A stretch of 59,401 nucleotides of DNA, filler included, from Dugesia japonica (GCA_001938525.1; 5 parts of 5 records of this genome joined end to end with filler, not necessarily neighbours in it); one strand, 5' to 3'. Shown: positions 5,651 to 44,647, counted from the whole stretch's first letter. Notes: a model not told the origin generated them from the sequence alone. Numbers and translations are program-made.

Positions 5651-6397
5651 ACTAATGAGTAAACAGAATTTTCGGCTAATCATCAAGTTGTAAAATGTTA
5701 TTGATTTAAAAAATTCATCATTTTTAAAATTTATTATTTGTTAAAACAGTAAAAAATCATTAAAAAATCTCAAGCATAAGCAAATCCAATGTTCCAGAGT
5801 TTAATCGTGATGATTCAATTATTGAAGATGAAAAAGTAGAAATATTCCAAAGAGGAAAGATAATGTTTACAATAAAATAATAGACTTTGAGAATGCTGAG
5901 GCGTTAGAATTTACCCGAAAATGNNNNNNNNNNNNNNNNNNNNNNNNNNNNNNNNNNNNNNNNNNNNNNNNNNNNTTTTTAATAATTTGTACTAATAATT
6001 AAATAATAAATTTTTAATAGTTTTTTTCACGAATCACAACTTTTCATTTTTTAAACAGGGCTCCCAATGGAATTTTCCAGGACTCGGCGAGCAAACAAAG
6101 TTTTAATTTATTTTGGCTTCGAATATTACAAATTTAGAGAAAATACAGACAGCGAAGTGGTAACTTGGAGGCGTAGATAACATCATTATGTCAAGGAAAT
6201 CATTCAAGGAGTAGTTCTAACATTGCCATGACTCATGTCCATAAGACAAAAGTAAAATTAAGATGAACCCAGTTGATGCTACTACAAGAAATATGATTGG
6301 AACTATCTAGCCAAAGCAGAGAAGGAGTTCACCTACCTAATCCAACCACTCCAGAATTTGTCATTGTTGATAGATATGTCTTTATTTTTTCATAACA

Positions 6398-6752
6398 GAT
6401 TTGTTTATGTCGACTTGTCTGTGTCAATTTGTCTTTGTATCGATTTGTCATGTGTCGATTTGTTATGTGTCAATTTGTCTTTGTGTCAATTTGTCTGTGT
6501 CGATTTGTCTGTGTCGACTTGTCTGTGTCAATTTGTCTTTGTGTCAATTTGTCATATATCGATTTGTCATGTGTCGATTTGTCATGTGTCAATTTGTCTT
6601 TGTATTGATTTGTCTTTGTGTCAATTTGTCTTTGTGTCAATTTGTCTTTGTACCGATTTGTCTTTGTATCGATTTGTCCTTGTATCGATTTGTCTTTATA
6701 TCGATTTGTATTTGTGTCGATTGGTCATGTGTCGATTTGTCTGTTTCAATTT
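6398..6752. repeat. Minisatellite, ~15-16 bp unit GTGTCRATTTGTC(T)T
   Basis: About 20 tandem degenerate copies are visible. Confidence 0.95.
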
Positions 6753-6859
6753 CTCTGGTCACCACGAAACACTATATTATCAAGCACATCATTGGTATTG
6801 ATGGTCGTCATAGATTAGTTGAGATTACAAAAGCAACAAAAAATATCCAACTGCAAATA

Positions 6860-7044: not shown

Positions 7045-7976
7045 CGACCCGAAATTATAACTGATTGCATTAATAATCTAGAATGCAATCTCTTGTTGTG
7101 CTTCGATTGGAAAAATTTAATGCTTATAATTATCTAATTTGATAATTATAGTTTGGTTTGAGGATTCTATAGTGAATTTCTTGGACTTAGTATTATTTTC
7201 AAAAAAATTCTATTAAATTTGAAGTATTTTTCTATTATTTTAATAGGAATTTTGAAAAGTTCATAGAATTATTTGTAATTAATTTTTTGAACAGTTGATT
7301 TCAACAAAGTGAATCCTCCATTTAAATCCAACAGCGATGAAAACGTGATTAACTATAATAATATGAATGCCAAAATGAAAATCAACTGTGAAGATTCATA
7401 ACAACAATTGAATTTATGTGAAATGTATTATAAATGAATATTTAATAAAAAAGATTGCTTCTAGTGAAATTTGTAAATGGTTAATTAAAATCGCTATCAA
7501 ATCTGCTGGTGTCACTCAAACTCCCGAATTCCTGCAAATTCAAAACAGTGGAACCAGATCCTCCTGATATGAAGCTACCATTTAACTTTATAGTCAAACA
7601 GCAGGATCAACATCTGAGAAACAAATCATGAGTGGTTAAAGGAGATCCATGTTACGAGAGATCTGGCGATTTTTGTAATTTATTTAATTTATTAATGGAT
7701 TTTTAATTAATTTATTAATTACTAAATTTGATCTTAAAAGTGTATCTGATAATGTGGAAAAAAAGTTTGTCGAGATAATTTCTACCAGGTGAACAGTATA
7801 TTTAGTTATAAAAAACTCTACTTTCACATTACAAAAACATTTTTCAGTAATTTATAAATGAATTATTTAAATTAATGAATTATTTAAATTAATTAATTTA
7901 ATTATTAAGTTAATTATTTATAAAAATTTAAAAATGAAAATAGTTATATAAAAAGCACATTTCAAAATTAACTTAC

Positions 7977-8686
7977 CGAATCGACAATTTTCTCTGCTCC
8001 ATTTCCAATTGACTAATTAGATCGATTTTATTAAATACTATAACATCAGCAAGAGATATTTGTCTAAATTATTTAACAATAAAATAAAAATCAGATCTAC
8101 GAAGCTACCTAAGGCATTCATTTATTCCTTCATTATCATTATTTTCAGACATCTGTTTATCTATGTAAAATCCATCAACTACTGTAACAATTCCATCCAA
8201 GTATAAATCGCTACATAAACTATCATCTAACCAAAAAATAGATGCAATAGGTCCTAATTAAATTAAGCTTTAATATTTCACAACCAAATTAAACCTGGAT
8301 CTGCTAATCCAGTTGTTTCCAACAAGATATAGTCAAATTTTCCTTTCTTTTTCATTAAACTTTCCAAAGCTTTAACTCCAACATCTTTAATAGAACAGCA
8401 AAGGCAACCATTCAACAATTCTAACCATTCTTCATACAAAACACCATTATCTTTTATATTTTCATTTATTTCGATAGCTGATCCAGATCCAAATTCATTC
8501 AAAATGACAGCAATTTTTTTCCCATGATTTTCATTTAAGATATAATTTAATAATGTTGTTTTTCCAGATCCTAAATTGTTATTCAAAATATTATATTCTA
8601 AAATATTCACCAAGACATCCAGTTAATATAGTAACGGGCACTTTTTCATAAGGTATCAAGAAAGGAATGTCTTCCATATTGTCCAT
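7977..8686 (-). CDS. CBWD1: COBW-domain / ZNG1 zinc metallochaperone GTPase, exons 1-4 (8686-8611, 8570-8295, 8253-8109, 8063-7977); 3' exons not seen
   Basis: [11 protein letters not shown]|SGKTTLLN Walker [11 protein letters not shown] (GCxCC), [45 protein letters not shown] introns of 40, 41 and 45 bp keep the frame. Confidence 0.93.
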
Positions 8687-9109
8687 TAACTTTCAAATAA
8701 AAATTATGTTAATTATGTTTAAACAAAATTAACATAACAATAAAAATGTTATTAAACAAGTGTTTCATTGAACCGTTCTATTTAAAAAACAAGTATGGAA
8801 CACAAAATTATTTCTAGTCAAAAATATGTTTTGGAATCTTAAGAAATGCATAAATACTATAAAATGTTAAACTAAGTAAATTATAGATAATTTTAATTTC
8901 TCTTATTTATTTATTAAATACATTTATCAAGAATTTTTTCAGTCGTTAAAGACATTGTTAAAATTCCGAAATATGTTGTTAATTTCAATATAATTATTAA
9001 AAGCAATTTTTATTTGATGGGTCACTTGAAATAACTGGTTACTGGAATAAAATTTTAAACAGTAAAAAAATTTGTGCAATTGCTTTATACACGATCGCAA
9101 TGAATCTTG

Positions 9110-9465: not shown

Positions 9466-10025
9466 GTATTATGATATATTATCCACGACAAGTTATTTTG
9501 GTTATCTGTTTGTTAGCTTAATCAAATACTTTATGTTATATTTACTCAGTTCAGTAATTTATATTATTTTATTGTTAATATAATTTATTTGTGTGTTGAA
9601 AAGGATTTATAGACTTCAAGAGAGTCTGCCGAATTGTATGGTGACATTTGGGGTATATGCGTATGTAGGACGCAAAAATGAAAGTAGAATTTCGTGTAGA
9701 AATAATTTAGGTATACTACAAATAAGAATAAAATAATAACGAAATCAACAGTTAATTAATGAACGTTTATTTATCAAACTGTTAGGGTTGTAAGCTATGC
9801 TTACATTAATTTACCTAATTTATTAATTTATTCATAAAATTTTATTTAATTTATTAAAAATTTCTAATTGTTTAAACTTATCAATTTATTAATTGTTATC
9901 TTATTTATTTATTATTGTTGGGGTGAAACACCGGATTAAGGAAAAAATAATGGCGTAAGTAGACACGGAATTCGAAAGATCNNNNNNNNNNNNNNNNNNN
10001 NNNNNNNNNNNNNNNNNNNNNNNNN

Positions 10026-10037
10026 TTAATTAATTAA
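10026..10037. other. Artificial scaffold linker TTAATTAATTAA inside an N run (also 19391-19402, 32387-32398, 44150-44161)
   Basis: Identical 12-mer with stops in all six frames, each flanked by 44 N on both sides. Confidence 0.95.
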
Positions 10038-10158
10038 NNNNNNNNNNNNNNNNNNNNNNNNNNNNNNNNNNNNNNNNNNNNATTATTATATCTTTATGTC
10101 GATTTGCATTATTAATATCATGGTTATTAATATTATTATTGCTAGTATGATTATTTTT

Positions 10159-10300
10159 GGGGTTCCACCCGAGTTGGATGGTAAGAAAATAGTGGCTGGG
10201 GAAAAACAGCCCTCAGGGGAACCCGTTCAAGAATTTTACCTACCGCCCCTAGGGTAGGTATTCAGTTCATGGCGGTTGATCTCTCTCTTAATGGGAGGTA
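10159..10300 (+). ncRNA. Conserved multi-stem structure at the element tip (copy 1)
   Basis: Stems GGGTTCC/GGAACCC, GGCTG/CAGCC and TACCTACC/GGTAGGTA, with compensatory changes relative to copy 2. Confidence 0.6.
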
Positions 10301-10410
10301 CACACCCATAAACCTTTGTATTCGGGTTCATTCTTTTCCCTAATATTAGTAGCAAAAAAAAAGAAAAATACGATATTAAATATATACATTTTATTTCATA
10401 AACAAAATTA

Positions 10411-10793
10411 TTATAGCGAATCCAGCGCCCCTGGATCTAACCACTGGGCCGGATCGGTCGCTGAAAAGTTAAAGGTGGCGGTATCGTCATTATCGTCCTA
10501 TTGAATCCAAGTCGGATTGCCTATTTGGCAGGAGAGATCGGCGATGTATTGTTTAAGAAATTCTATCTTGCAGTGTAAAAGTTGTTTCGTCTCTGTTTCT
10601 AAAGCTTTGGTTTGAGCCACCAAGTCGTTCTGCTTCTTTACGATCAGGTCTAACCTCTTTATCAACCTGTCCCTCTGAGACAAATGCTTAAGCAGAGCCC
10701 GGTCAGTCTTACGCTTCAAATGCCTTTCTATCAGGAGTCGGCGCATGATGCGGTGGCATCTACGGAGGTTATTGGGAAAATTGATATGAGGCA
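10411..10793 (-). pseudogene. Cassette ORF D (copy 1), basic/coiled-coil protein with acidic Trp-containing tail; one premature TAG
   Basis: Ungapped, about three-quarters identical by eye to 16156-16550; TGG>TAG at 10498-10500; homology starts at ccAG|TG. Confidence 0.8.
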
Positions 10794-10924
10794 CTGGAAA
10801 ATAAAATAGGTTAAATATATCAGCACTCGACCATAGATCTCAAGCAAACATTAAAGCAATAATGGAATTCATAAGAAAAGTTGAATAATAAGTTTATTAA
10901 CAAAGAGAAAATATTTCCCTAGAA

Positions 10925-11283
10925 TTATCTTCTAGGGGTCTGGGTGCCCTTCTCGACCATCAATGGCTCGAGTGGGATTTTATCCCGAAGAAGCAAAATG
11001 TCGCCAACCAGTTTATTTTCTCGGTCATGGTAGGACCGGATCATCTCTGAGAAAGACTCTACTTGTCTTTTCCAAATGTGTTCTTGGGAATGGGAGGCTT
11101 CCGCTTACCTTTTAAAGAGGGCGCATTTTCTCTTATAGCGCAGGACTTTACTGTTGGCTGTGGCTATTTCGGCTTCCCACCGGCGTTTGGCCAACCGATA
11201 TAAATCCCAAGTGAGTTCAAGATCCTCACTGGTATCCCGGAATTTCTTTGTAGGGGCTGGTTGGCGGTTGGATGAGGAATGCA
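10925..11283 (-). pseudogene. Cassette ORF C (copy 1), helical protein ending in KGTQT; one premature TAA
   Basis: HSSSNRQPAPTKKFRD...RLAKRRWEAE...ENKLVGDIL...VEKGTQTPRR* is homologous to 15666-16025; stop at 11105-11107. Confidence 0.8.
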
Positions 11284-11515
11284 CTAATAAAAATATATAT
11301 ATATCACGACAATAACTTTCATAACTTTAAATTTCTAAAAAGACACAGTAGACACAAATTTGGTTTGTTAAGTGCTAGACCACCCAAATTGACTTATAAA
11401 CTTAGAAAACGACATGTGAACGAGGAAAAAATAATCTCTAAAGAATTACACAGAACATCGAACATTTATTTTAAACAGGGTCATCACGATAAGTTCAATA
11501 GGTTGCACACATTAT

Positions 11516-11872
11516 TTACTGAGGAGGAGTGGATGAGTCCGGCACCGGTGCGGTATTTTCTGAGTCTACGCTACCCGAAGGCTCTCTTATCCCGCAGAGC
11601 AGGTTAGAGATAAAAGCCTGAACTGCGGGAGCTGGGAGTGGCATCGCAGGCTGGTATTGTAAAGGTGTTGCCAGAGTGCGTACAGGGCCTGTCCAGGCTC
11701 GGTATTGTTGACGCTCGCTAAAATCTTGGATGCGAGCCACAATCGACTCTACTGGGGGCAGATTTGATCAGTCGACCAAGATGCCCGCATCACGGTTATG
11801 GGGGTTGTGATACCGCCGGAAAATTATTCGACGGGTTCTTCTATCATCAACACGTTCCCATATCGATTCCAT
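11516..11872 (-). pseudogene. Cassette ORF B (copy 1); one premature TGA
   Basis: MESIWERVDDRRTRRIIFRRYHNPHNRDAGILVD*SNLP is homologous to the N-terminus of 15083-15493; starts ttAG|AATG. Confidence 0.72.
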
Positions 11873-11983
11873 TCTAAAATTAACGGGAATTCGGTTTAAT
11901 TATAACCTATAACCATCTTTTTAACTTAATTAACATTAATAGAAATAAACAACAAATAGAATTGATCAAATCAATAGTTTATT

Positions 11984-12202
11984 TTAGACAAGCAATGGTC
12001 CGATTACACTTCTACTGAGGAAGACGTTTTCTAAATCCGCTGAAGACACTAAAGGGAACATCTCCGCAAAACAGCAAAGGTCTGTTTTATCCGGGTGTTC
12101 AATCCTCCTCTTAGTCAATAGGTGCGCGATCAACTGTTTTAATCGAGTAGCTCGACGTTGTCGCCTTATCCATCGAAGGGTATGACACAACTCGGCCGGC
12201 AT
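11984..12202 (-). CDS. Cassette ORF A (copy 1), 72-aa basic protein of unknown function
   Basis: RLKQLIAHL...IEHPDKTDL..FAEMFP is shared with 14741-14973; starts ttAG|TTCATG. Confidence 0.72.
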   Translation of the reverse strand: MPAELCHTLRWIRRQRRATRLKQLIAHLLTKRRIEHPDKTDLCCFAEMFPLVSSADLENVFLSRSVIGPLLV

Positions 12203-12429
12203 GAACTAAATAAAAGAAGAACACATTTTTTATATCATCACTTGTGATTCAGTCCCTTAAAAAGCGGAACAATTAGTGCAGCCAGATGATATTAATAGAA
12301 AACCGCTATATCAGTCCTCTGAACAAGTTTAATTTAAATTCATCACTGATTATTGAGAAACTTGTCCAGGTTCATAACCCTCGTAATAAAGGTACTATTT
12401 CTGATCTTACTAAGGATGCTACTCGCCAA

Positions 12430-12961
12430 AAAAACGTTAATAACAATCATAACAACAATACGAGTCATAATATTAGTGCGGATACTACTCATAAGGTAGA
12501 TAGTAAGGGCAATAATAGCAATACAGAATTATTAATAATTTTAATAGTAATAGGGCGATAAATCATACTAATGATGATAATGTGAATGACGTCGAAAATA
12601 TAGTTGAATAAACGGGTCACTGATATTCAAAGTAATAATACAATTATTAACAATGACAGCAATAATATTAGCAATACTAATAATAGTAATGATAATCATA
12701 ATACAGATAATAATAATGGTACTAATAATAATATTGATAAGGGTAATGGCAACATTAGTAATAANNNNNNNNNNNNNNNNNNNNNNNNNNNNNNNNNNNN
12801 NNNNNNNNNNNNNNNNNNNNNNNNNNNNNNNNNNNNNNNNNNNNNNNNNNNNNNNNNNNNNNNNNNNNNNNNNNNNNNNNNNNNNNNNNNNNNNNNNNNN
12901 NNNNNNNNNNNNNNNNNNNNNNNNNNNNNNNNNNNNNNNNNNNNNNNNNNNNNNNNNNNNN

Positions 12962-13035
<74 letters not shown>
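12430..13035. repeat. (AAT)n microsatellite, degenerate to perfect, inside the LTR-like element; contains an N gap
   Basis: Direct sequence. Confidence 0.9.
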
Positions 13036-14740
13036 CGTAAAATTAAAATTTTTTCTCCTTTTAAATTCTTGCGCGTCATCGTTGCTTGGCGATTCCCCCC
13101 TTGGTAACAGATTGAATTAAGTTATTTTAAATCGGTGTTTGCCATATTATGTGTGCATTTTATCTAGGTGCGTGTGTTTATTTTGTTGGTCTAGCTCCAA
13201 CTGCTATATGTGTGTATGGCGAAGTTTATTTAATCGATGTGTCCTCTAGTTGCCTAACTATGAGGCAATGCAAGAGTGTGTATATAGAAGTTAGAGTTGG
13301 ATGTCGTGTATCAACACTGGGGGTTTACTAAATTTGTAGGATCTTCCTCACACCTACTATGGAAAAGGAACTGGGAAAACCGTAACGAAAGGAATTTTAA
13401 CACACCTATTTACTATTCTGGCAATTCATAATATTCACCATTTTATCATATAGAGGAGGTTTAATTTAATTACTTCCACTGCTAAACGAAGCTAGTCACT
13501 CTTCACAAAATCAATGCCACTATTGTAGAACGGAAATTTAGCGGACTGTGACCTGGTCATAGATATTATTGGAATTTTCTCGTTGGAATTTATCCTATTG
13601 TGAGAATATAATGAGTTATGAACCTATTGCACAGTCAGGGGTGAGTTATGAGTTACAAAAAAAAATTTCTTATTTCGGTTACTTATTTGATCCAATTATC
13701 AATGGAGTGAAACTCTCGTTTAGTTGGCTTATAGAATAAATAACTGACTTAAAAATTTCTTGTTTTTTATTATTATCTATTTATTATCAAAGAATTATTA
13801 AACATAAAACAATTTATATTTACCATATTTATTATATAAATCAACGTATAAATAATAACACCAAACTTTACTTTTAATATAGAGTGATGATTCTGCAACG
13901 AGGAGTGATAGGAATGTGGGAGAATCCAAATTCAACGTAATTCTCGGCTTTCTAATTTCTTTCTTCGATTTTCACTGGTAAAACGATCTTTTTCTCTACA
14001 ACGTGGTATTAATTTCTAAATGTTAAAGTTTCTAGTAATTTCTATCTTACGAGTAATATTCTGATATTGAGTCGCCAAATTTCTGCTCACTGCAAGATTT
14101 TTCCACAATTAATATTAGGATAACATAGTGGATAGTTGACTTTGCAATTTATAATCTTCGAATTAAGTCGTAATGATATAAGTTGATTTCGTTTTTTTTG
14201 TAGTTTTTTCGTTACTTTCTCTGGGGGTTTAAATAGCTTCCTGAATACACCCCTTTTAATTAATCTATTTTTTTTCTTTATAATTAATTATTCTGGTTAA
14301 TCATTTTCTCGTTATTAAATAATAGTTCAGTAATTTCCTTGATTTGATATTCTCAGTACTCATTTATCAGCTTTTCTTAGATTGTTCCTCTCGTTATTAA
14401 TTTTCTACCTGATTTCGTTTTGGTATTTGTAATACCGTATTATTCCTTTTTCTCTTTAGGGTACTTGTTGGTAGTGATTATCTAGTTTCCTCCTTGACTG
14501 GTTGTTTCGCCCCAACATTATTAAAATCGTCATTATTGGTAATACTATCATAAATATTGTTAGGCTTACCATCAATTCCAGTAGTTACTAATCACTATTG
14601 AAGCCGTTTATTTATTTTATAGCTCAAGAGGATTTTAAGTTGATAATCGTGATTAAGACCAAACGTCCTCGAATGCTAAATGCTCATTTTATAGACGTAT
14701 TAAGTTAATGATGGTTTTAAAATTCAAAATTATTTAGAAT

Positions 14741-14973
14741 ATGACCACAGAGCTGAGCATCATGTTATCCGGAAGCCGTAAACAACGTAAGGTTTATCGA
14801 TTAAGACAGTTGTTGGCGCACCTTTTCTCCCGAGGTAAAATAGAACATCCCGACGAAACGGATTTAGCTTTTTTCGCGGAGATGTTCCCCTCGGTGACTT
14901 CAGTAGATATTGATGGGGAAAAAGTACTCTCTTAGGTACGAGTACAAACATTCAACCATTATTACCTGTTTAA
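14741..14973 (+). pseudogene. Cassette ORF A (copy 2), frameshifted near the C-terminus
   Basis: RLRQLLAHL...IEHPDETDL..FAEMFP; the tail IQPLLPV* (cf. IGPLLV*) is in a shifted frame; starts ttAG|AATATG. Confidence 0.72.
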
Positions 14974-15082
14974 CATAAAATTTAAAATTGAATAGTTATG
15001 TTTGTGTTCTTGTTTTACTTTTAATTGTTTTACCTTAAAGAAATCATAATTTAAACAAATTTCTGGTTTATCTACTTATAGA

Positions 15083-15493
15083 ATAGAGTTCGTATGGGAA
15101 ACACTATACGATCGCCAGACCAATAAAGTCGTTTTTAAAAGATACTGAAACCCCCATGATCGTAATGCGGGGGTTCTCACAGAATATTCTAACATGCCTT
15201 CCCAAAGAGAGTGGGCTGCAGCGCAGCGCCAAGCATTTTACGAATAGCGCGGACCCGACCATACGCAAGAGGTGCTCCATCGCACCACAATTATAGATCC
15301 CAAAACCAATCAGACCATTAGTGCATGGTGAGAAGGTTCTGCATTCTTACCTGTATCGGCAGAGCATCTACCACCCAAGTCTGGAATAGATGTTGATCAA
15401 GGTAATACGTTATGGGAACTACGAAACCAGGCCGTAGGTGGAACCTCCGAAAATTTTAATAATGTTGTCACAGGTGGAGCTCGAGTTGGCTGA
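15083..15493 (+). pseudogene. Cassette ORF B (copy 2), ATG>ATA and three in-frame stops
   Basis: EFVWETLYDRQTNKVVFKRY*NPHDRNAGVLTEYSNMP aligns with copy 1 ORF B; starts atAG|AATA. Confidence 0.68.
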
Positions 15494-15665
15494 TCTTTGA
15501 AATCTCATTTCCCACTATTTCATGATAAATATATGTTTCCTCTGTATTTCTACAATTATTCCACTATTTTTAATACCTACATTAGGGAATTGAGTGTTAA
15601 ATTGTTAAGTTCTATCGTGTTTTCCGCTTTTGACTAATTGTGTTATAACACTATTTAATTTTTAG

Positions 15666-16025
15666 TGTATTCTTCTTTAAATCGGGCTGTAGCGCCTACT
15701 AAGAAGCTGCGAGAATCCAGTGACGATACAGAAATCACTTTGGACCTTTTTTAGGCTCGCAAAGCGCCGTTGGGAAGCCGATACTGCGACCACCGAGGCT
15801 AAAGTTAAACGTTATAGAAAGAAATGTTTGGAATTTAAGAATGAAGCCAAGGCATCTCACATCCAAGAAAGGGTTTGGATGACCCAGTTAGAAATGCTCA
15901 CTGAAATCATCCGTTCCTACCAAGACCAAGAGAATAAACTGGTTGGTGATATTTTAAGAATACGAAAGGCAATGCCTTCTGCACCATTTATGGTGCATAA
16001 AGGAGTCCAGACATCACGGTTGTGA
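15666..16025 (+). pseudogene. Cassette ORF C (copy 2), +1 T in a homopolymer at ~15750
   Basis: YSSLNRAVAPTKKLRE...RLAKRRWEAD...ENKLVGDIL...VHKGVQTSRL*; starts ttAG|TG. Confidence 0.78.
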
Positions 16026-16155
16026 ATGTTGTTCAACTCTTTAATGATAATAAATAATTCTCTTTTCGACTCAATGTTTTCAGATGATTCTTTCGTTTAG
16101 GTTCAATATATTATTTTAACTTAAAATAAATTAGAATTAATGTCATCATATTTAG

Positions 16156-16550
16156 TGCCTCGAATTACTTTCCCTAACAGTTTGAGACGTTGCCACCGAA
16201 TAATGCGTCGATTATTAGTAGAAAGACACCTTAAACGCCAATCAGATCGTGCCCTCTTGAAGCATCTTTCTCAGCGCAACCAATTGATTAAAAAATTAGA
16301 TTTGATCGTTAAAAAGCAGCATGATTTGGCAATTCAATCCAATAATTTAGAGGAGCAGACTAAACAGCTGCTTCTGAGAAAAATAGATTTCCTAAAACAA
16401 AATATCTCTGACCTTTCGCGTCAACTTGGGAACCCGACCTGGGTGCAGTGGGATGACAATGATGACCAAGCAACTTTTGACTTATTAGTTACAGACCCAG
16501 CCCAGTGGTTAGACCCCGGTGCTCTGTACGAAATGTATTTATTGCAATGA
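16156..16550 (+). CDS. Cassette ORF D (copy 2), intact ~131-aa basic/coiled-coil protein
   Basis: Open frame, homologous to 10411-10793 with mostly synonymous codon differences; starts ttAG|TG (the in-frame ATG at 16140 is not shared with copy 1). Confidence 0.8.
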
Positions 16551-16634
16551 AATATGGTCTAAAATTATGTTTTGATTGGTTTATTTGTTAATATAGTAAG
16601 GAAATAAGGAACCCAAAATAAAGGTGTATGAGTG

Positions 16635-16780
16635 AGTACCTCCCGTAAAGGTCGAAGGTCAACCGCTCTGCCCCGAAGATCTAACTTAGAGACGTTAGAT
16701 TAAAATTCTTGAAGGTGATTCCCTGAGGGCCGATTTTCCCCGGCCAGCGTTCTTTTTACTATCAACTCAGGTGGAACACC
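16635..16780 (-). ncRNA. Conserved multi-stem structure at the element tip (copy 2)
   Basis: Stems GGTGTTCC/GGAATCACC, CCTGAG/CTCAGG, GGCCG/CGGCC and ATCTAAC/GTTAGAT. Confidence 0.6.
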
Positions 16781-17092
16781 AACATTTATACTTGCTTCAA
16801 AGACGTATGTTTCCAACTCAATTTTTAAGAGTTTACACAATGGAGAATCAGTGAAAATCCTTTCTATGATTTTCTAAAAACCATTTAATGGTTTTGAATT
16901 ATTTTTCTATACCTTACAGTTATTTCAATTTCAAAATCCAATTTAGAGATCTACAAAAATCTCGTTCAAGCTACGTATTTCTCCATCTTTTCATAGTCTT
17001 TATTGCTTTTATGAAGAATAATTAAAAAGCTCATTTTGAAGGTATTAAATAGTATTTCTAATTCACAAAATTTATCCACGATTGCTTTAGTA

Positions 17093-17890: not shown

Positions 17891-20089
17891 TGATTCTCAT
17901 TAATTATGATAACTAATATAACTAACAAAGAAAATGATCTTTCGAATAGATAAACAATGTAAATTCAAAGTTTAAAGTGACAAGTATACAATTACTATAC
18001 AATTTTGAATGTCCGAAATATAGGTTGACTGATATATTTTAAGTATTTTTAGGGTTGTATGCTAGGCTTACATATTTTAATGAGTTATAAAATTTAATGA
18101 TTTTTTTTAAATTTTAAAGGGTAAACTAGAATTAAACTAAAAATTAGTAAATATTATTTTAATTAAATAAAAATAAATCTTTTATAAAAATTACTTATTT
18201 TAGATATTGTGATTTTAACTATTAATGTAATTAGAAATGATCGTTTTTGGTAAATAAGAATTCACAAAATCTACGCATAGTTTTTATGCAAATTTTTTGT
18301 CAACAAAAGAATTGATGCATAATTTTATGCAAACTTACGATTTTCGAAAATGGTATAAATACTGATTTCAAAATCAGTGTAACAACAGAGAGTTAAAAAA
18401 ATTTATTGTAGCTAATATATAGCAGTGAAAAAAAATTATTATTTTTTTTAGCAGTTAAACCTAATATTATAGCTAAATTTAGCAGTTTTTTAGGTAAATT
18501 ATAATATTTAAAATTTTCATTTTATTGAGTGGAATAGTAAAAATCAGTTATTGATTATTATTATTTCAAAATAAGTATCTAAGTAATAACACAGTGGTTT
18601 AAACACTTATTTATTAGTTGTTTAGTTGTTATAAAATATCGTCCCAAATTAATTAAGTGTGGTTTGGAAACGAGGCCCACCATTCTGCTCTTATCAGGCC
18701 GGTATTGTAATGCCGGTATTTATCTTTCTATTAAAATCACTATATAGCGGTTTTCGTTAATACCTAAAATTAATCAACCCTTGTGCAAATTGTAATTTTT
18801 ATTTGTAAATTATAGTTGATTTATCTTAATAAAGTTTATAAAATATAAAATCGTTCTCTTAGTTATTTATTGTTATTATTATATCAAGTTATTTATATCT
18901 AATTAATTAATTAAATACCTACACGCATCTTTTAAAGCAAAATTTGGAGTCAGTAAATAAATTTTTATTTCTTACCCACGAGATCTAACAGTATTTATTA
19001 AGACAAAATAGTAAATATGTAATGACTATACAATATTTAAATGTATGAAATTTATAATGACTGATATATTATTAAATAAATATACTGAAATGGATAAGTA
19101 TATGATTACTATAAAATTTTGAATGTCCAAATATTATGATATATTATTCATATGCGAGTTGACATAAATTTGATGACATTAGCAAAAATATACAATTATT
19201 GACGATGATAACTGATGGTTTTTAAACTATTGTAGCTATTAGTTAAATTTAAAGTCTCACAAGTCTCCATAATTTTTTTATTGATTATTACAAGTCTTTT
19301 CTTAAAAATAAAAATATGAAATAACAATTCACAAATTTCAAACAAANNNNNNNNNNNNNNNNNNNNNNNNNNNNNNNNNNNNNNNNNNNNTTAATTAATT
19401 AANNNNNNNNNNNNNNNNNNNNNNNNNNNNNNNNNNNNNNNNNNNNTTCCTCTTATTTTGCACCATTTCCCATCATTTACCACTATTTAGCTATATTTAT
19501 GAATAAATGGTAAAATTTCCCTTATTTTAGTAAAATTATATATATTTTAATAGTGATGATACAAATTCAAATTCAATTACTTACAATAAGATATATATAT
19601 GTATATTAGATTTAAAATAACGGAAATTTTACTAAAACTATTCAAAAAATTACTAAAATAAGTGACAATTTACTAACTGTTCTTAAATTTAGCTATATTT
19701 ACTCTATTTTGCCATAGTTTCTTTATTTTTTAATGGGTTTTAATGCATATTTTCACTTCATATTTTCAAAGATCTCACTTCACTAATCTTTAAAGAGTGT
19801 CATATATTGATAAAAGAAGACAATAAGATTGGTGATAGTGAGTAAGAGTTGATATGACATGCTTTTTATTTAAAATAATGAAACTATTTTAGTATATTTT
19901 AGTCGTATAATTATCCTTCTGCTTCATTTCTTGCTCATTGGCATCCTTGCTTGCTTTTTGGTTTTATGGGTTTCTTTTTCCTTTTGATAGCCAATATTTA
20001 GAGACATTGTTAGAAAAAAGACTTCAATATAGAAAATAAGTATCTCAACATTGAAAATATTAGTTTCAATAGATAAAATTAAGGTCCTA

Positions 20090-21700: not shown

Positions 21701-23529
21701 TTTTTTTAAAGGTAGGATGTGTAAATAGATGGGAGAAGAGCCTAGGATAATTTCACGAGAAAATCAAAAAACTTTGTTTAATATAAAAAAATGATTTATT
21801 TTTAAAAATGACGAGTCTTGCAAAGATGNNNNNNNNNNNNNNNNNNNNNNNNNNNNNNCACTTGGATTATTCTAGAAATCCTCGTTAACGATTCCTATAA
21901 ATTTGGATGAAGTGTGAACGAAATAAGCAAATTAAGAGTAATTTCTAAAAATAGGCTTAAAAACACAACAAAGAATTAATTACTCAGACTTAATTATTTT
22001 CTATAGACTTTTGAAATATTTTGATGTTTAATCGAGGTTAAATATAGGTTGGGCAATGATTAATTAAAAATATAAAATTACTAGAATAGAATAAAATAAA
22101 ATAATAGAGAAAGAAAGAACCAATAAACACAATTTATTTGCAAATTGTATTTGATAGTTTATTATCATGATCATCGTAATTATTATTTGCATAATTTACA
22201 AAACAATTCATCTCTCTTATTATTGATAATCAATGTTAATTATAATTATAAACACAATTATAAACACACAGGCGCATGCAAGCTTTACGAAATTCAACCA
22301 ATCAAATTGAATGCTTTGATTTCTTTGTTGCAGTCCTAAAATTAATGAAAAAATAATGTTTAAATTAATTTTAAAAAATTGAAGTAACTAAATCGTGAGT
22401 AATCAATCTTAAATATTCGATGTTTCCTCTTGATGCTGACTTGAGGTGGAAACGGAGTGGGATCAGGCGAGAAATTATATCCCACATTGATTGGTTGGAT
22501 AGATGATTGCAAATTCTGATTGGTGTCTAAAATAATTCTTAGAATTTCTGTAAATTTCATTTTAATTGAGTAATAAAATATGATTATTAATTACGTATAT
22601 TTTAACAAAATATTAATAAAAAAATATTTTCGAAAAAATTAACTAAATTATATTTGTCCATTCTTCGTTGTAATTTATAGAAATATAGTTGCCATTCAAA
22701 ATATTTTAAATTTTACAATAAAACATATATAAAAACATTTTTTTAATATTTAAAACATTTAAATTCTTCAATCATTTTATTTTTTATTTATTTGAAATAT
22801 TAATTTTGATTTTTTAAAGAAACATTTTGGTTAATATTTTTTACTAATTTTGATAAATATCTGATTTAAATAAATGAAAAAATTTATTTTTATTTTTTTT
22901 AAGAAAGACAAATTTTTTTAAATAAATTTTTTTAAAATGTTGATCTTAAAGAATTTTCATAGAAATTCAACTCGATATTTTGAAATTTATATTTTTGTTG
23001 AAAATTTAATATTTATAAAATTTTACAATGGAAAAATTAATAATTTTTTTAATGTCGAAAATTTTAAATTAAATAAAAGAACAGTAGGATACCAATCTCA
23101 TTAAATTAAAAGCTTCGATTAAAATGTTATTTTGCGTTCTCAGAATTTTTCACTATTGTCTTCTTCACGAATTCAAGAAAATGGTTGAAAATTCGGATTA
23201 CTACGAAATAGGAGATAAAAAGAAACAAAATAAAATTTTGATCGAAGTTTTTATTTTAATTCAACAAAATTTCAAATACAATCAATGGTTAAGTTCAATA
23301 ATTATTCTAGTAGTATTTGTAATAGTAAAATTGTTATTCAATAATGTTTAAATACTTTTAGAAAACAAATATTAGAGTTGTAAAAATCAAAAATAAAAAT
23401 TTGTGATCAGTTCAAAATCAATAATAATTTAAATATGAAAAATAGAAATATCCCAGCTAATAAATAATTATGCCAAAAATTCCACTTGATTTTACGAATT
23501 TTTGACAAATCGATAATGGAAATGATCTG

Positions 23530-25720
23530 ATCAACGAGTTCTTCCCTTTCTTGGCATTTTCATGTGACATTCGACATTGCACACATACCTCACATTTTGG
23601 TCTAGATAACGTATCTGCATTAGCATGTTGAATTCCTTTTCTATATTCCAAAATCATATCTAATTTGCTCAGATAATTAATCCATGTCTGGAATTGCGAC
23701 GTAATTGGTTTCTTTGTCGTCATCATGAAAGTTAGAGCTNNNNNNNNNNNNNNNNNNNNNNNNNNNNNNNNNNNNNNNNNNNNNNNNNNTTTGTGATCTG
23801 TTCTAAGAGTAAATCTTCTACCATACAAGTAATGTTTGAATTGTATACAGAAATAATAAACAGTTAATAACTGTTTCGTGTAATGCAGCATTCTTTTTCA
23901 TGAGTTGTCATTGAGTGTGATCCATAGGCAACAACTCTTTCTCTTCCTTCTTTATCTCTCTGTGACAATACTGCTCCAATTGTATCGAAATTGGCATCCG
24001 TATCTAATATAAATTCTTTGTTTATGTCCGGAAAACACAATATTGGTGCAGTCATTAGAGAATTCTTTAGACCATGAAAAGTATCGTTTATTTCATCTGT
24101 CCATTCTAATTTCTTGTTGCTTGGTCCGCTACACAACTGCTCTAATATNNNNNNNNNNNNNNNNNNNNNNNNNNNNNNNNNNNNNNNNNNNNNNNNNNTA
24201 TTTCATCTGTCCATTCTAATTTCTTGTTGCTTGGTCCGCTACACAACTGCTCTAATATCTTTAATTTTCTTGGGTAGTTTTCTATAAACTTCCTGCAATT
24301 CCAAACAAATTCCCAAAAAACTTCGTAATTTCTTCACGCAGTTAGGTTTGCCAAATGTTCTTATAGCTTCTATTTTAGACGGATCAGTTCTAACACCATC
24401 ACTGCTAATTATGTGTCCAAAAAACTTGATTTCACTTTGAAGAAACTGACATTTTTCCCGATTAATTTTTAGACCAGCCTTCAATATTTCCGTCAATACT
24501 CTTTTAATTACTTCTTAGTGTTGGTCTTTATTGTTCGTAAATATCAGTATGTCATCAAGATAGACCATGGCTCCATTGATTCCGCCTACCACNTTTGTCA
24601 TCATCTCTTGAAATGTCCCTGGTGCCGCTGCGATGCCAAATGGATTTCTATTAAAACAATATTGCCCGTGTTTCGTTGAAAACGCTGTTTTTTCTTGAGA
24701 TTATTCTTCGAGCTCTATTTGATAGTATGCATTTCCAAAATCTCTTGAACTGAAATATTTTGCTCTATCTAACTTGTCCAGCATTTCATCGACATTAGGC
24801 ATCGGAAAGGCTTGTCTTTTCGTTACTGCATTCAATTGTCTGAAATCCAAACATATTCTTATGTCTTTCTTTTCCTTTTTCAAAACACATATCAGTGGAG
24901 TATTCCATGGAGAGTTGCATTTCCTGATTATTCTCGAAAAGGTTTTGGATAGCTTCTTCAATTTTAGATTCTAAGTTCATTGGTTGTCTATATGGTTTTA
25001 CATTGATTGGTTCACCACTTGTGATTATTTTGTGTCTTGTTAGATGTGTGCGTCCTACATCCCATTTATCTGCCATAAAAGCATCTTCTTTACTTTCAAT
25101 TATTTTCACTAACCGTTGATTCTCTTTAATATTCAAGATATTTAAACCTCTTTTCAATCGCTCTCCTTTTTTAATTTGTCTCCCAAATTTCGTTTCAATA
25201 TTACAATTATAATTTTCGACTTTTTCATCCGTTTTGCTATTGAATTTTCACATTTTTGGAATTATCCAAATAACCTCTACATTCCTCCTATCAGATCTGG
25301 TGTCACTCTTTAAGCAACTAAAAAAGTATCTCTTTGCAAACTTCATCAATTATCACTCCGGTTTTAACTTTCCCAACAATTTCAAGTGTATTATTATTTG
25401 CACAACGCAATCTTTCATCACTCATTTCTAAATTTCCTTCTCGTAATTTATTAAAACAAGTCAAACTGATCACATTAATTCGAGCCCCTGTATCTAATAG
25501 ACATTCTACTTTATTTCCTTGAATTGATACCGTAACACTTGGTCTGCCTTGCAATTTATGGTACGAAGTATTTATTTTCTTTCCTGCTTCAACTGTTCCA
25601 ACCTATTCTACTTTTCTATTATTTGCAAAATTTTCACTCTTTAAGAACCTGTATACTTTTTCTGTAACTTTTCCTATATCATCCAACTTTTCGACTTCTT
25701 GAGGATAATACCTAACTTCA
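23530..25720 (-). mobile_element. Degenerate Ty3/Gypsy LTR retrotransposon (gag end, protease, RT, RNase H)
   Basis: CLLDTGA protease motif, RICLDFRQLN, VYLDDIL (~24550-24567), FILDTDA..IGAVLSQ, YLYGRRFTLRTDHK; multiple frameshifts. Confidence 0.93.
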
Positions 25721-28189: not shown

Positions 28190-29430
28190 GCAATTCGGTA
28201 AAAGTTGGAGTCAATGATCAAAAATTCACATTTATGGTAGACCAGATCCCAACTCTTTAAAAAAGTGAAAGACTTGGTCGATAAAATTTTAGCAAACGGG
28301 GGAAAAACGAAAAAAACTCTTGTCAAAAATGCTAATAATTTGTGCAGATAGTACAAAAAGCAGAAGAGATAATCATACGAAAATTGGAGAAAGTAGAAGA
28401 TTTAAAAGAAACGTTATCATTAGTTGAAGAAATAGAAAGTAGAGAACCTATTAACGTAGTAAAGATTTACGTGGGTGTAACAAGTGAAGAACGTACCTGA
28501 GAAAGGAGACAAAATTTCGAGAGAGTTACGAAAAGAACAGAGCGACGGTGTTGAACATGCCAGAGTTATGGGCATACAAAATGAGTGTCCAAAAGGTTTA
28601 CAAGTGGAATGTTAGACTTACCACAAAAAAGGCCATTTAAGTAGAAATTGTCCAGACAAGAAACCACCAAAATGTTTTGAGTGTGGTAAGGTAGATCAGA
28701 TCAGAAGAATTTGCACAGAAATTGTATGTGGTAGATGTAACAGATCAGGTCACAGAGCGGAAGAATGTTATTCGAACAATAATAAAACAAAGACAAGAAG
28801 AAAGAAGACACCATTTTAAAAGCAAACAACAAACAAAAGATTGGAGTCGGACCAAACAAATCCATATCATGCGAGAAGAGCATAGTGATGAGAATGAAAA
28901 GATATTTTCTGGGAGCATATATAAAATGAAGATCCAAGCAAAGCAAACCCAAAAGGCAGGGCTCCATCAGTAGAGGTGTTGTTCAGAGTCATTCATTAAA
29001 CGAGATACCGTTTGAATTTCCTCAAGAGAACGAGAAATGGGATGAGACAAGTAAAGTGAGAGAAAATGCTTACATATTCCTAAAAAGAGGAAGTTTCAAT
29101 GATACGGAATTGAACAAAGCAAAAGTGATAGGAACAATTGAAGAGAAACAGAATGTAGAAATTTTGTATGATCAGATGCAAGGGAGACGTCGCCTTTCAG
29201 TGATGATCAAGGGTGAACACTTTGATTGTTTGTTAGCTAAAGTAGCAAGAATAATTGTAATGAGCATAAAAGGATTTAGTAGACTCGGAGAAACAATATT
29301 AGAAAAGACGAGGAACAATTGCTTTGCGTGAATAACAGCTCATTTGAGACAATTGGAAAGTTACGTGTGGAAGTTGTAGTTTCAGAGGTGTGCAAGGAAG
29401 TAACATTTATAATAGTAGAGAAATTAATGA
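28190..29430 (+). mobile_element. Degenerate Gypsy gag-protease fragment
   Basis: Several decayed CCHC knuckles (C.TCQSYGH, KKGHLSRNC, CFECGK, CGRCNRSGHRAEEC); MQGR..SVMIKGEHFDCLL parallels the protease at 25554. Confidence 0.82.
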
Positions 29431-29431
29431 C

Positions 29432-29575
29432 ATATCTTGATAGTATGCATTTCCCAAGTCTATTGATCTAAAATACTGTGCACTTTTTAAAGCATCCAGC
29501 ATTTCATCAACATTTGGCATAGAAAAACTTGTCTTTCTGTTATTGGATTGAGCTGTTAAAGTCTAAGCATAATCG
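29432..29575 (-). mobile_element. Gypsy RT fragment, inverted relative to the adjacent gag-pro
   Basis: QLNPITERQVFSMPNVDEMLD...IDLGNAYYQ. Confidence 0.78.
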
Positions 29576-29579
29576 TATA

Positions 29580-30600
29580 AGAATATCATTGATGACTGAA
29601 ATTTAGTGGGCAGAGCACGGAGGTTTGATAACTGAATATTAGAGAATAGTCAAAATTCGTCTAATATACAGCCCAAAAATTGACCTTTCCGAATAAATTA
29701 TCATCCTATTTTAAAGTTCTTCGTGGACTCCAAAATTAAGAACTAGTTTTTTCTTTATCAATTTTTATGTATAAGACTTGCTTATTTTATGTGATGTTTT
29801 TCGTGATCAGTGAATAATTCTCTACCGTTTATATTCGTTTATAATTACATTTGAGATACTTTTTATTTTTAATTAATTATTGAGAATTAAAAGCTTTAAA
29901 CCGTTTTCAAATCAATTTGATTTCTCAAATTTCTATCGTGTATATTATTGATCAGTGAAACATTCTCTATCTTAAAGTACTTGGGTCATTTAATTTGGAT
30001 GAAAATTATAAAAATAATTTTTTATTTATATTGATTAAACATCCTCGGGATTTTCTTTGTCAAAATTAAGTTTGACAATTTTAGATAATGTTTTTCTCTG
30101 TCAGTCGAAGATTTGTTTTATCGAATAGCTTATGATTAGTTACGATTTGAGAAAACAAAAAATTTCAAAAATTCTCGGGTTTATTTGACCTTACCGAGAA
30201 AATTTCCAACCAATTTCACCTGAACCAGCAAAACGAAATTACCATGTTCAATCTCATTGGGTAAATCATCAGCAAAATTCACCTGAGATCAATCAAAAAT
30301 TTATCTCATTCGATCTCAACGAATAAATTCAAAACCAAAAGCTTAAAAAATATTTTTACCACTAAAATGCCTAAAATTTGAAAATTATTTGACAAACTTT
30401 CCAAAATACAGTTAAAAGTTATGTAAATGATCATAAATTTTACTCGCCAGCTAAGAACACACGAAAAATAGCTTCTTTTTATCCTTAAAAAATCCAATTT
30501 CACCGATTAAATTAGTTTCATGATATAATCTGTGTGCAAAAATATTTTCCAACTAAATACACAGGAACAAATGAACTTCTCTAACATAATATTACCTAAT
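29580..30600 (+). repeat. Shortened copy of the dispersed repeat family
   Basis: GATGACTGAAATTTAGTGGGCAGAGCA, TAAATTATCATCCTATTTT and CCAACTAAATACACAGG are shared with 33006-35230. Confidence 0.65.
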
Positions 30601-31891: not shown

Positions 31892-32266
31892 TTATTTTCT
31901 CCCTTTCCCAGAATATTCGTAGAATCCCTTGCCGGATTTCACTCCCAAATGGTTCTCACTCACTAATTTATTCAGAAGAGGAATCGGATTGAAAAGTGGA
32001 TTATCGGGAAATTTTTCATGCCAACCATCAATAATAAATTGGATTGTATCGAGACCCACATAATCAGCAAGAGTAAACGGTCCCATAGGATGGCTGGCAC
32101 CAAGGCGCATTGCTGTATCAATGTCTTCGCAAGTAGCTTCATTTCTTTCCAGCATTCTCACAGCTTCACCAAGATAAGGTACTAATAATCGATTGACAAT
32201 AAATCCTGGAGTATCCCGACACTTAACTGGAGTTTTACCGACAGATTTAGCAAATTCGAGTAACAT
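31892..32266 (-). CDS. HADH: 3-hydroxyacyl-CoA dehydrogenase, terminal exon
   Basis: [61 protein letters not shown], preceded by a CAG acceptor; upstream exons are not seen (gap/linker). Confidence 0.93.
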
Positions 32267-33005
32267 CTGTTGAGAAATAAATTGTGCTCATATTATACCA
32301 ATAAATAACAATAACATCAATATTAATATTAATAATAATAATNNNNNNNNNNNNNNNNNNNNNNNNNNNNNNNNNNNNNNNNNNNNTTAATTAATTAANN
32401 NNNNNNNNNNNNNNNNNNNNNNNNNNNNNNNNNNNNNNNNNNAATCTATTCTTTCATTTAATGAAATTCTAACCAATTATTCACGAACCTAATATTTACC
32501 TTTAAAAATTAATTAAATAAATTTTCAAAGAAATTTTATTAAATCAATTAAACTTTAGAATCAACATATACAAAATTTTAAATATAATTTTAATAAATTG
32601 AAATATCTTAATTAAAACATTAAAAATTGCCCTTATTTATTTTAGTATTTACTAAATGTGAAACCATAAATAATAAAGGTTTTTCCTCTATATAATTGTA
32701 AATATTTAGGTTTATAAAGTGGTATCAATAATAAGCATAAAGATAAAAGTTTAAATATTCACTTCTTATTGTATTTTANNNNNNNNNNNNNNNNNNNNNN
32801 NNNNNNNNNNNNNNNNNNNNNNNNNNNNNNNNNNNNNNNNNNNNNNNNNNNNNNNNNNNNNNNNNNNNNNNNNNNNNNNNNNNNNNNNNNNNNNNNNNNN
32901 NNNNNNNNNNNNNNNNNNNNNNNNNNNNNNNNNNNNNNNNNNNNNNNNNNNNNNNNNNNNNNNNNNNNNNNNNNNNNNNNNNNNNNNNNNNNNNNNNNNN
33001 NNNNN

Positions 33006-44105: not shown

Positions 44106-44647
44106 NNNNNNNNNNNNNNNNNNNNNNNNNNNNNNNNNNNNNNNNNNNNTTAATTAATTAANNNNNNNNNNNNNNNNNNNNNNNNNNNNNNNNNNNNNNN
44201 NNNNNTAACTTTTCAGCTGTAATTGGTTTTCAATATGAACATTATTGTTAAATTTTTCTTTTTTTCAGTGGAATAAATTTATATTTAAAATTTTATCACT
44301 TAAATGTGATTTGATTATAAAATACATATTTCAAGTAATATAACTGAATTTATCGAAATTTAGTGCTTTAATTTAAACTAAAAACTATGTCCAATTAAAT
44401 TGACTTTGCTCTTGAATAAGTTAANNNNNNNNNNNNNNNNNNNNNNNNNNNNNNNNNNNNNNNNNNNNNNNNNNNNNNNNNNNNNNNNNNNNNNNNNNNN
44501 NNNNNNNNNNTAAATGAATCTATTTATAAGATTTGATTATAGTTTCAATATATCCAATTAAGTTGAATTAGAAATATTTTCAATTAAAATTTGTTTTACA
44601 ATTATTGCTAGAATAATTGTTGGACATAACCATTAATCGTTTTTCAG

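Follow-up and report, generated by a model that had tools for sequence, protein, structure and literature searches.

In a stretch of DNA from Dugesia japonica (GCA_001938525.1; 59,401 nucleotides including filler, referred to here as the window), two copies of one element with TG..CA ends were found, lying in opposite orientation and nested one in the other, and the same four open reading frames (ORFs), A, B, C and D, were common to both. The copies are likely to be gene-bearing solo long terminal repeats (LTRs) of a giant Ty3/gypsy lineage, whichever way the genes are oriented. The more specific reading preferred here, held at just short of an even chance, is that of two decayed solo LTRs of a giant, Burro-like Ty3/gypsy element, in which the four ORFs would be alternatively spliced accessory genes, likely read in the sense direction from U3. 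Purifying selection on the four frames prior to the decay of these copies is supported by the comparison of their codons. Coordinates of the features are collected in Table 1.

To compare the copies, their ORFs were codon-aligned (356 codons). The pooled proportion of synonymous differences (pS) was 0.81, i.e. saturated, as against a proportion of non-synonymous differences (pN) of 0.25, and the differences at codon positions 1, 2 and 3 numbered 111, 74 and 219. Protein identity between the copies ranged from 41 to 75%, with 31 of 58 identical residues in A, 25 of 61 in B (N-terminal part only), 17 of 28 plus 52 of 90 in C and 93 of 124 in D. In shifted frames of D the contrast was lost and 9-14 stops appeared, compared with 0-1 in the true frame; the in-register opposite frame of D contained 3-4 stops. 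Alignment of the three spacers was no better than that of shuffled sequences (17, 13 and 162 of 200 shuffles scored as high). The GC content was 41-53% in the ORFs versus 22-30% in the spacers, which were T-skewed on the cassette strand. An earlier, sequence-only reading of this DNA had claimed conserved proteins between non-aligning spacers as well as purifying selection before decay; the identity counts and spacer shuffles confirmed the former, and the latter held in a test of the dN/dS type (non-synonymous against synonymous change), which was not near neutral. Each ORF is closed by its own stop codon, indicating that A-D are not exons of one protein. A paralogue of ORF A was not found elsewhere within the window.

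All eight ORF starts (8/8) were preceded by a T-rich tract and YAG, at aligned positions in both copies, and YTRAY-like branch sequences were visible upstream of most of them. The background frequency of YAG is 0.03 per base, and a loose acceptor filter was passed by 31 sites in the two cassettes, including seven of the eight ORF starts; the argument for acceptors lies in the coincidence of the sites with the points where conservation begins, and not in their strength. An ATG occurred within 4 bases of the AG at ORF A in both copies and at ORF B in copy 1, and ORFs C and D started with a phase-1 TG in both copies, with no ATG there. The ORFs would be four acceptor-led exons, two of them without an ATG, that are reached by splicing, and the simplest reading would be that of one leader spliced to four alternative acceptors. 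The gene set of the sequence-only reading stands as far as the ORFs and their conservation are concerned, but no longer as a set of free-standing genes, since the ORFs are acceptor-led and C and D have no ATG of their own. A direct repeat suggesting a copy of exon 1 in an LTR intron was not found.

Table 1. Positions of the two element copies, their ORFs and associated features in the window
Feature	Position	Strand	Remarks
Copy 1, complete element	10155..14517	- (cassette orientation)	4.36 kb, likely solo LTR; N gap 12765-12961
Copy 1 target-site duplication TTAT, left	10151..10154		
Copy 1 target-site duplication TTAT, right	14518..14521		
Copy 1 conserved terminal block, candidate R-U5	10155..10390	-	TATA-like stretch ~10386; hairpins 10194-10211 and ~10238-10260; outer stem closes 5 nt from end
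Copy 1 ORF D	10411..10793	-	TG start after acceptor-like AG (10794), without own ATG; internal stop 10500
Copy 1 ORF C	10925..11283	-	TG start after acceptor-like AG (11284), without own ATG; predicted coiled coil; stop 11107
Copy 1 LC8/DYNLL-type motif VEKGTQTP, end of ORF C	10934..10957	-	
Copy 1 ORF B	11516..11872	-	Own ATG, acceptor-like AG ends 11874; internal stop 11770
Copy 1 ORF A	11984..12202	-	72 aa, own ATG, acceptor-like AG ends 12206; no internal stop
Copy 1 degenerate AAT/ATT low-complexity tract	12440..13030		
Copy 2 probable far end (TGTTGGGG...)	9916..9981	+	Cut off by assembly spacer 9982-10081
Copy 2 ATT-rich tract left of copy 1 insertion	10082..10154	+	
Copy 2 main piece	14522..16784	+	Remaining ATT-rich tract, cassette, conserved end
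Copy 2 ORF A	14741..14935	+	64 aa, own ATG, acceptor-like AG ends 14737
Copy 2 ORF B	15083..15493	+	Acceptor-like AG ends 15081; without ATG at start; stops 15146, 15245, 15329
Copy 2 ORF C	15666..16025	+	TG start after acceptor-like AG (15665); frame break ~15741-15752
Copy 2 LC8-type motif VHKGVQTS, end of ORF C	15993-16016	+	
Copy 2 ORF D	16156..16550	+	TG start after acceptor-like AG (16155); open 131 codons
Copy 2 conserved terminal block	16570..16784	+	AATAAA 16617, then GT-rich stretch, hairpins of copy 1, ends ACCAACA

The cassette of copy 1 runs from 12202 to 10411 on the minus strand and ends 256 bp from the terminus at 10155 (TTTTGGGG), and that of copy 2 runs from 14741 to 16550 on the plus strand, 234 bp from the CCAACA terminus at 16784. 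These coordinates, the codon lines quoted for the two cassettes, the span of copy 1 and the TTAT on both its sides had been given in the sequence-only reading and all matched on recheck. The termini at 14517, 9916 and 16784 fit the LTR integrase-site consensus TGTTRNR...YNYAACA as given in PMC3601003, and the terminus at 10155 is one base off. Copy 1 is flanked on both sides by ATT-rich sequence resembling the tract upstream of its own ORF A, which fits its nesting inside copy 2. The proposed far end of copy 2 at 9916 was retained as probable: its TG-type end fits the consensus, with the caveats that it lies across an assembly spacer, that its similarity to the 14517 end of copy 1 extends over ~27 bp only (2 of 500 shuffles scored as high) and that the flanks of copy 2, TTAT on the left and TTTA on the right, form an inexact duplication. 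The inverted repeat at the element ends measures only 9 bp, and no long terminal inverted repeat (TIR) was found in end-to-end alignments, which were at chance level (250 and 385 of 500 shuffles scored as high). There was no ORF of at least 90 aa between 13121 and 14517.

Some further observations concern the part of the element upstream of the cassette. In both copies, and on both sides of the insertion, the AAT tract forms an Asn/Asp-rich open frame opposite to the cassette (12433-12762 on the plus strand, 14518-14577 and 10086-10154 on the minus strand). This frame showed no excess of changes at third positions (5/12/3 by codon position, one piece), so the tract resembles a microsatellite in decay more than a gene. 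The stretch 13900-14517 (minus strand) is A-rich on the cassette strand, with an AT skew of +0.29, compared with +0.22 for gypsy pol in the sense direction. Both elements begin with a short frame in register (VGAKQPVKEETR versus VGVKHRIKEKIMA), which could be the tail of an upstream ORF entering the LTR.

Between the copies, 230 bp of the D-side end could be aligned (0 of 500 shuffles scored as high), and depth was highest in this part of the element, while the opposite end was conserved over only ~27 bp, near the integrase site. On the cassette strand, the D-side end presents in order a TATA-like stretch, AATAAA, a GT-rich stretch, hairpins and CCAACA. The same order of signals is described in PMC3601003 as conserved in LTRs of animal Metaviridae, with U3 as the variable, low-complexity part. 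Four compensatory pairs were observed in the hairpins between the copies, on each strand, and the paired changes at 10195 and 10210 occurred in 63% and 67% of the DNA depth. The hairpins folded with -31.8 kcal/mol on the cassette strand versus -29.6 kcal/mol on the opposite strand, a weak sign in a comparison of two sequences. The TATA-like stretch was seen in copy 1 and, among relatives, in two loose-end rows. Candidates for TATA, AATAAA and GT-rich signals occurred on both strands, and none of them was kept in all copies seen.

The family, which includes more distant subfamilies, is plainly very abundant. From two DNA runs, 7,227 and 6,743 contigs aligned to 10085-12600 (2,516 bases). Summed depth, which is not a copy number, was 265 to ~13,000 over most of the cassette and the part upstream, with peaks of ~1e5 at 11009-11092 and of more than 2e5 at 10169-10252; single long pieces had a depth of 7-17. 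A short alignment of 10135-10345 (211 bases) yielded 2,856 contigs of one run. Among 24 of the 212 loose-end rows, five reached the terminus, all at the same place; four of these five had AT-rich, unlike flanks (two with low agreement, 0.58 and 0.66) and one had a single flank letter. According to the sequence-only reading, a low-copy cassette that lacked fixed ends elsewhere would have spoken against solo LTRs; instead, the family is very abundant and other copies stop at the same terminus. Of the solo-LTR proposal itself, the ends, the 4-bp duplication, which falls within the 4-6 bp expected of Ty3/gypsy LTRs, the copy number and the fixed terminus fit, but the link to gag-pol, a primer-binding site (PBS) or a polypurine tract (PPT) was not seen. 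The element gave no gag, pol or transposase match in the Pfam scan, in agreement with what had been noticed by eye.

Beside these figures, a 35-base stretch of ORF C (11007-11041) was common to far more abundant relatives (bin depth ~1e5 versus 1e3-1e4 alongside). The same stretch showed a ~15-fold RNA depth, on both strands, in run X14. Some subfamily of ORF C is present in poly(A) RNA. RNA reads were aligned to copy 1 with a quarter of the reads from each of two poly(A) runs, and most of those aligned fell on the ATT-rich flank. In runs X9 and X11, taken by guess to be RNA, the depth profile followed that of the DNA, with no strand signal.

A full-length element would carry at its 5′ end a single leader exon, to be joined to one of the acceptors A-D of the 3′ LTR, so that each of the four mRNAs would encode a single gene, on the pattern of sag in the 3′ LTR of mouse mammary tumour virus (MMTV). 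A and B would bring their own ATG. In C and D the first codon would begin with a base supplied by the leader, and a leader with A as its last base would thereby complete the ATG; alternatively, the leader may be short, coding and in phase 1. Recombination between the two LTRs would leave solo copies. The insertion of copy 1 would have hit the low-complexity tract of a solo copy that is older and belongs to a distant subfamily.

For the protein of ORF C, the prediction is a coiled-coil dimer that LC8/DYNLL would hold together by way of a C-terminal motif. The pattern V-x-K/R-G-[TVI]-Q-[TV] matched twice in the 118,798 six-frame codons of the window, both times at the end of C, and in none of 20,000 shuffles of either C. 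A loose LC8 pattern gave 14 matches in the window and was found in 0.8% and 2.3% of the C shuffles. LC8/DYNLL is described as recognizing [D/S]-K-x-[T/V/I]-Q-[T/V]-[D/E], with VSRGTQTE as the phage-selected optimum and valine at -5 raising affinity (PMC3078936), and proline is favoured at +2 (PMC6607443). The motif of copy 1 agrees with the published preferences at -5, -3, -2, the TQT anchor and +2. In both copies, K/R-x-[TVI]-Q-[TV] lies beside a predicted dimerising coil, as judged from the heptad pattern only. LC8 is a dimerisation hub that is also used by viral proteins (PMC3078936), so the motif predicts an LC8-stabilised dimer and not necessarily transport. Two points count against this assignment: the pattern was picked after the sequence had been seen, and many TQT peptides fail to bind LC8 (PMC6607443).

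Leucine heptads were present in D as well as in C, and in D they are accompanied by a basic stretch and an acidic-aromatic tail. D would act as a basic zipper with that tail and, judging from known motifs, could function in trafficking as an adaptor or in transcription as a small regulator. Its WVQWDD sequence resembles AP-2-ear and kinesin-light-chain motifs; a literature search for it gave nothing, and it serves as a lead only. A hydrophobic window of transmembrane strength was not found in A-D (no 19-residue window above 1.3).

Database searches with the cassette proteins gave no relatives. Pfam had no match at cut-off for A-D, and a word-seeded protein search, covering near lengths only, returned no significant relative for D, A and C (8, 2 and 2 candidates). 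An HMMER scan of D against 1.84 billion representatives gave two matches, neither a true relative, and both proved to be tandem-repeat pseudo-proteins. The protein atlas held no usable match for D; for C, scores of 0.90-0.91 were reached by unnamed clusters in which feature sharing was low, and 0.88 by a bZIP_2 cluster, and these are leads only. ORF B was scanned against Pfam and PHROGs only. A RusA-like family of PHROGs was rejected for C, having scored E 8e-5 with copy 2 and only 0.21 with copy 1, over the helical tail. The best E among PDB sequences was 0.31, and viral contigs and phages contained no relatives. A metagenome locus (L001) was dismissed as a bacterial protein with a coiled-coil chance match, and a single Rfam match (E 0.65) was likewise due to chance. 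No tRNA genes were found in the window. No function can be assigned to A and B.

A sense cassette in U3 is slightly favoured over an antisense one, because the block downstream of D is conserved over 230 bp and structured, and the other end is not. The opposite layout, in which the cassette of the solo LTRs would be antisense to the genomic RNA of the giant Ty3/gypsy element, was that of the sequence-only reading and now appears rather unlikely. The LTR would then read on the plus strand in copy 1, from a promoter at ~13281 and with R-U5 extending to 14517, and the cassette would have its own promoter, leader exon and poly(A) site. TATATAG at 13281 and AATAAA at 13735, both on the plus strand, are consistent with this layout, as is the T-richness of the plus strand in 13900-14517, which is often seen in U5. 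An AATAAA at 10395 (minus strand), with a T-rich stretch behind it, sits at the expected end of a cassette mRNA, donor-like sites with a preceding A lie upstream of ORF A on the minus strand (13413, 13357 and 12410), and the terminal hairpins fold on both strands. However, the most conserved 230 bp would here start U3 and the least conserved end would be U5, the reverse of the usual pattern. For the signals at 13281 and 13735, the corresponding part of copy 2 falls in an assembly gap, and antisense genes would be free to keep ordinary introns, so that a layout with one leader and many acceptors would not be forced. Several results weigh against the reading preferred here. Copy 1 has AATACA in place of the hexamer at 16617, which relatives with loose ends across that spot do not keep either. 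The TATA-like stretch has no counterpart in copy 2, and in copy 1 a second AATAAA, at 10395, lies upstream of it. Either orientation requires a poly(A) signal after D, and the fold comparison is based on two sequences. The best candidate for the leader donor, at 10305 in copy 1 and at 16632 in copy 2, varies among relatives, 27% of the depth differing at the T of GT. In the RNA alignments to copy 1, no exon-joining read was seen among the 15 joints shown of 39, and reads with at least 95% identity numbered 0 of 201 and 0 of 55 in the two poly(A) runs. No shared PBS- or PPT-like flank occurred in the 24 of 212 loose-end rows shown, for the 10155-type end, at which alone the boundary was tested; as contigs collapse repeats, a missing shared flank does not exclude internal junctions.

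An improbable alternative is that the copies are complete, non-autonomous DNA elements (Ginger1-like or of an unnamed type) that were mobilised by an integrase, with four cargo genes and no retrotransposon part. Ginger1 has TG...CA ends starting with TGTNR and a 4-bp duplication (PMC6839031; PMC3601003), the junctions seen at the tested end were all with unlike AT-rich DNA, and no retroelement protein was found in or adjoining the element, the nearest gypsy pol pieces being 6.7 kb off. Yet the ends share an inverted repeat of 9 bp and are otherwise unlike, while DNA transposons of the Ginger1 group are described with TIRs (PMC6839031), and conservation is strongly unequal at the two ends, as is the case in LTRs. 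Very improbable is a further reading, by which A-D would be exons of one spliced gene, either the element's own or captured from the host, with the intervening stops arising from decay. The spacers are indeed intron-like, the two copies have an aligned donor-like GTA where A ends (12014 and 14936) and another follows B in copy 1. But the stop codon of C falls at almost the same position in the two copies and is not preceded by a usable donor, the phases from A to B disagree between the copies, A and B begin with ATG right after the acceptor, and no host-like homologue was found.

Among retroviruses, the HIV nef and foamy-virus bel genes lie near U3. With the MMTV superantigen gene sag, located in the 3′ LTR and reached via a splice acceptor (PMC11569226), the cassette would share an accessory ORF that lies inside an LTR and is expressed by splicing; in contrast to the single LTR ORF of that vertebrate retrovirus, to which it has no sequence similarity, it has four ORFs in a probable Metaviridae LTR. 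The planarian giants Burro and GYPSM1 exceed 30 kb in total, have an internal region of up to 25 kb and accessory ORFs, and occur as decayed copies in D. japonica (PMC6431247); the two lengths together imply LTRs of several kb. Compared by description and not by sequence, they resemble the present family in their thousands of copies, AT-rich animal genome and accessory ORFs, but no LTR genes are described for them (PMC6431247). The portions of PMC8532177 and PMC11410931 that mention Burro name it without LTR anatomy. In PIWI-depleted animals, LTR elements lose their repression (PMC8532177). Schmidtea errantiviruses of the GAG-ENV-POL type (Chary and Hayashi 2026, PMC13524379) are candidate planarian parent elements; in the part of that source dealing with them, all six rows (6/6) list no PBS and no LTR coordinates, and an LTR start of the present type was not found in the supplements searched from the errantivirus literature. 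In the Drosophila MDG1 group, purifying selection likewise acts on sORF1 and sORF2, two small accessory ORFs of a Ty3/gypsy element, but they lie between LTR and gag and are unspliced, and sORF2 has a transmembrane helix (PMC11952523), whereas no hydrophobic window of such strength was found in A-D. The env gene of springer-subclade errantiviruses also has a start codon split by an intron and made by splicing; its leader gives AU (bioRxiv 10.1101/2023.08.03.551782), whereas for C and D, with their TG start, the leader would give one base, and env lies inside the element and not in the LTR. Ginger1, for its part, shares the TG...CA ends and the 4-bp duplication, but here neither an integrase-like transposase nor an extended TIR was seen; a non-autonomous member would lack the transposase too. 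Descriptions of genes in planarian LTRs were not found in the literature covered; the 2018 genome paper with its supplement and Repbase lie outside that coverage and may bear on novelty.

To our knowledge, Ty3/gypsy LTRs have been treated as non-coding. It is possible, although doubtful, that the multi-kb LTR of a giant planarian Ty3/gypsy element is an accessory operon in the style of complex retroviruses, with four orphan U3 genes that have their own acceptors, one leader, two first codons completed by splicing and one LC8 client. If so, a selected four-gene LTR cassette would match a retrotransposon with complex retroviruses in gene regulation and would add four protein families without relatives in the databases searched. 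The LC8 client could link particles or integration complexes to host transport, and its motif, which can be tested with peptides, would open a way into the interaction of host cells with the giant planarian elements, which are regarded as virus-like. Thousands of solo LTRs would each be a ready-made gene trap with four acceptors and a poly(A) site. For genome annotation it matters that such ORFs are present in very large numbers, with acceptors that could capture host transcripts.

The window as a whole is AT-rich eukaryotic DNA that contains exons of host type, from cobW and HADH, and remnants of gypsy pol. A host-type CobW/CBWD GTPase gene with several exons (7960-8690, minus strand; Pfam cobW E 1.8e-28) lies ~1.2 kb from the far end of copy 2, and an exon of a host 3-hydroxyacyl-CoA dehydrogenase is located at 31892-32287 (minus strand; Pfam 3HCDH E 3e-34). 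A decayed Ty3/gypsy pol at 23457-25602 (minus strand) gave Pfam matches to protease (E 8.7e-6) and reverse transcriptase (E 3.9e-5), with an RNase H-like stretch recognized by eye, and has no link to the element. A second gypsy-like remnant lies opposite to it at 28695-29580 (plus strand), where 29437-29578 is 76% alike to 24719-24862 over 144 bases. Spacers of 100 N with a central TTAATTAATTAA were located at 9982-10081, 19347-19446, 32343-32442 and 44106-44205, and the order of the contigs across them is not given by the sequence. A tandem array with a unit of 15-16 bases was found at 6355-6760. Inverted arrays of a degenerate ~51-base unit, 32 kb apart at 473-1776 and 33006-35147, are possibly subterminal repeats of another element.

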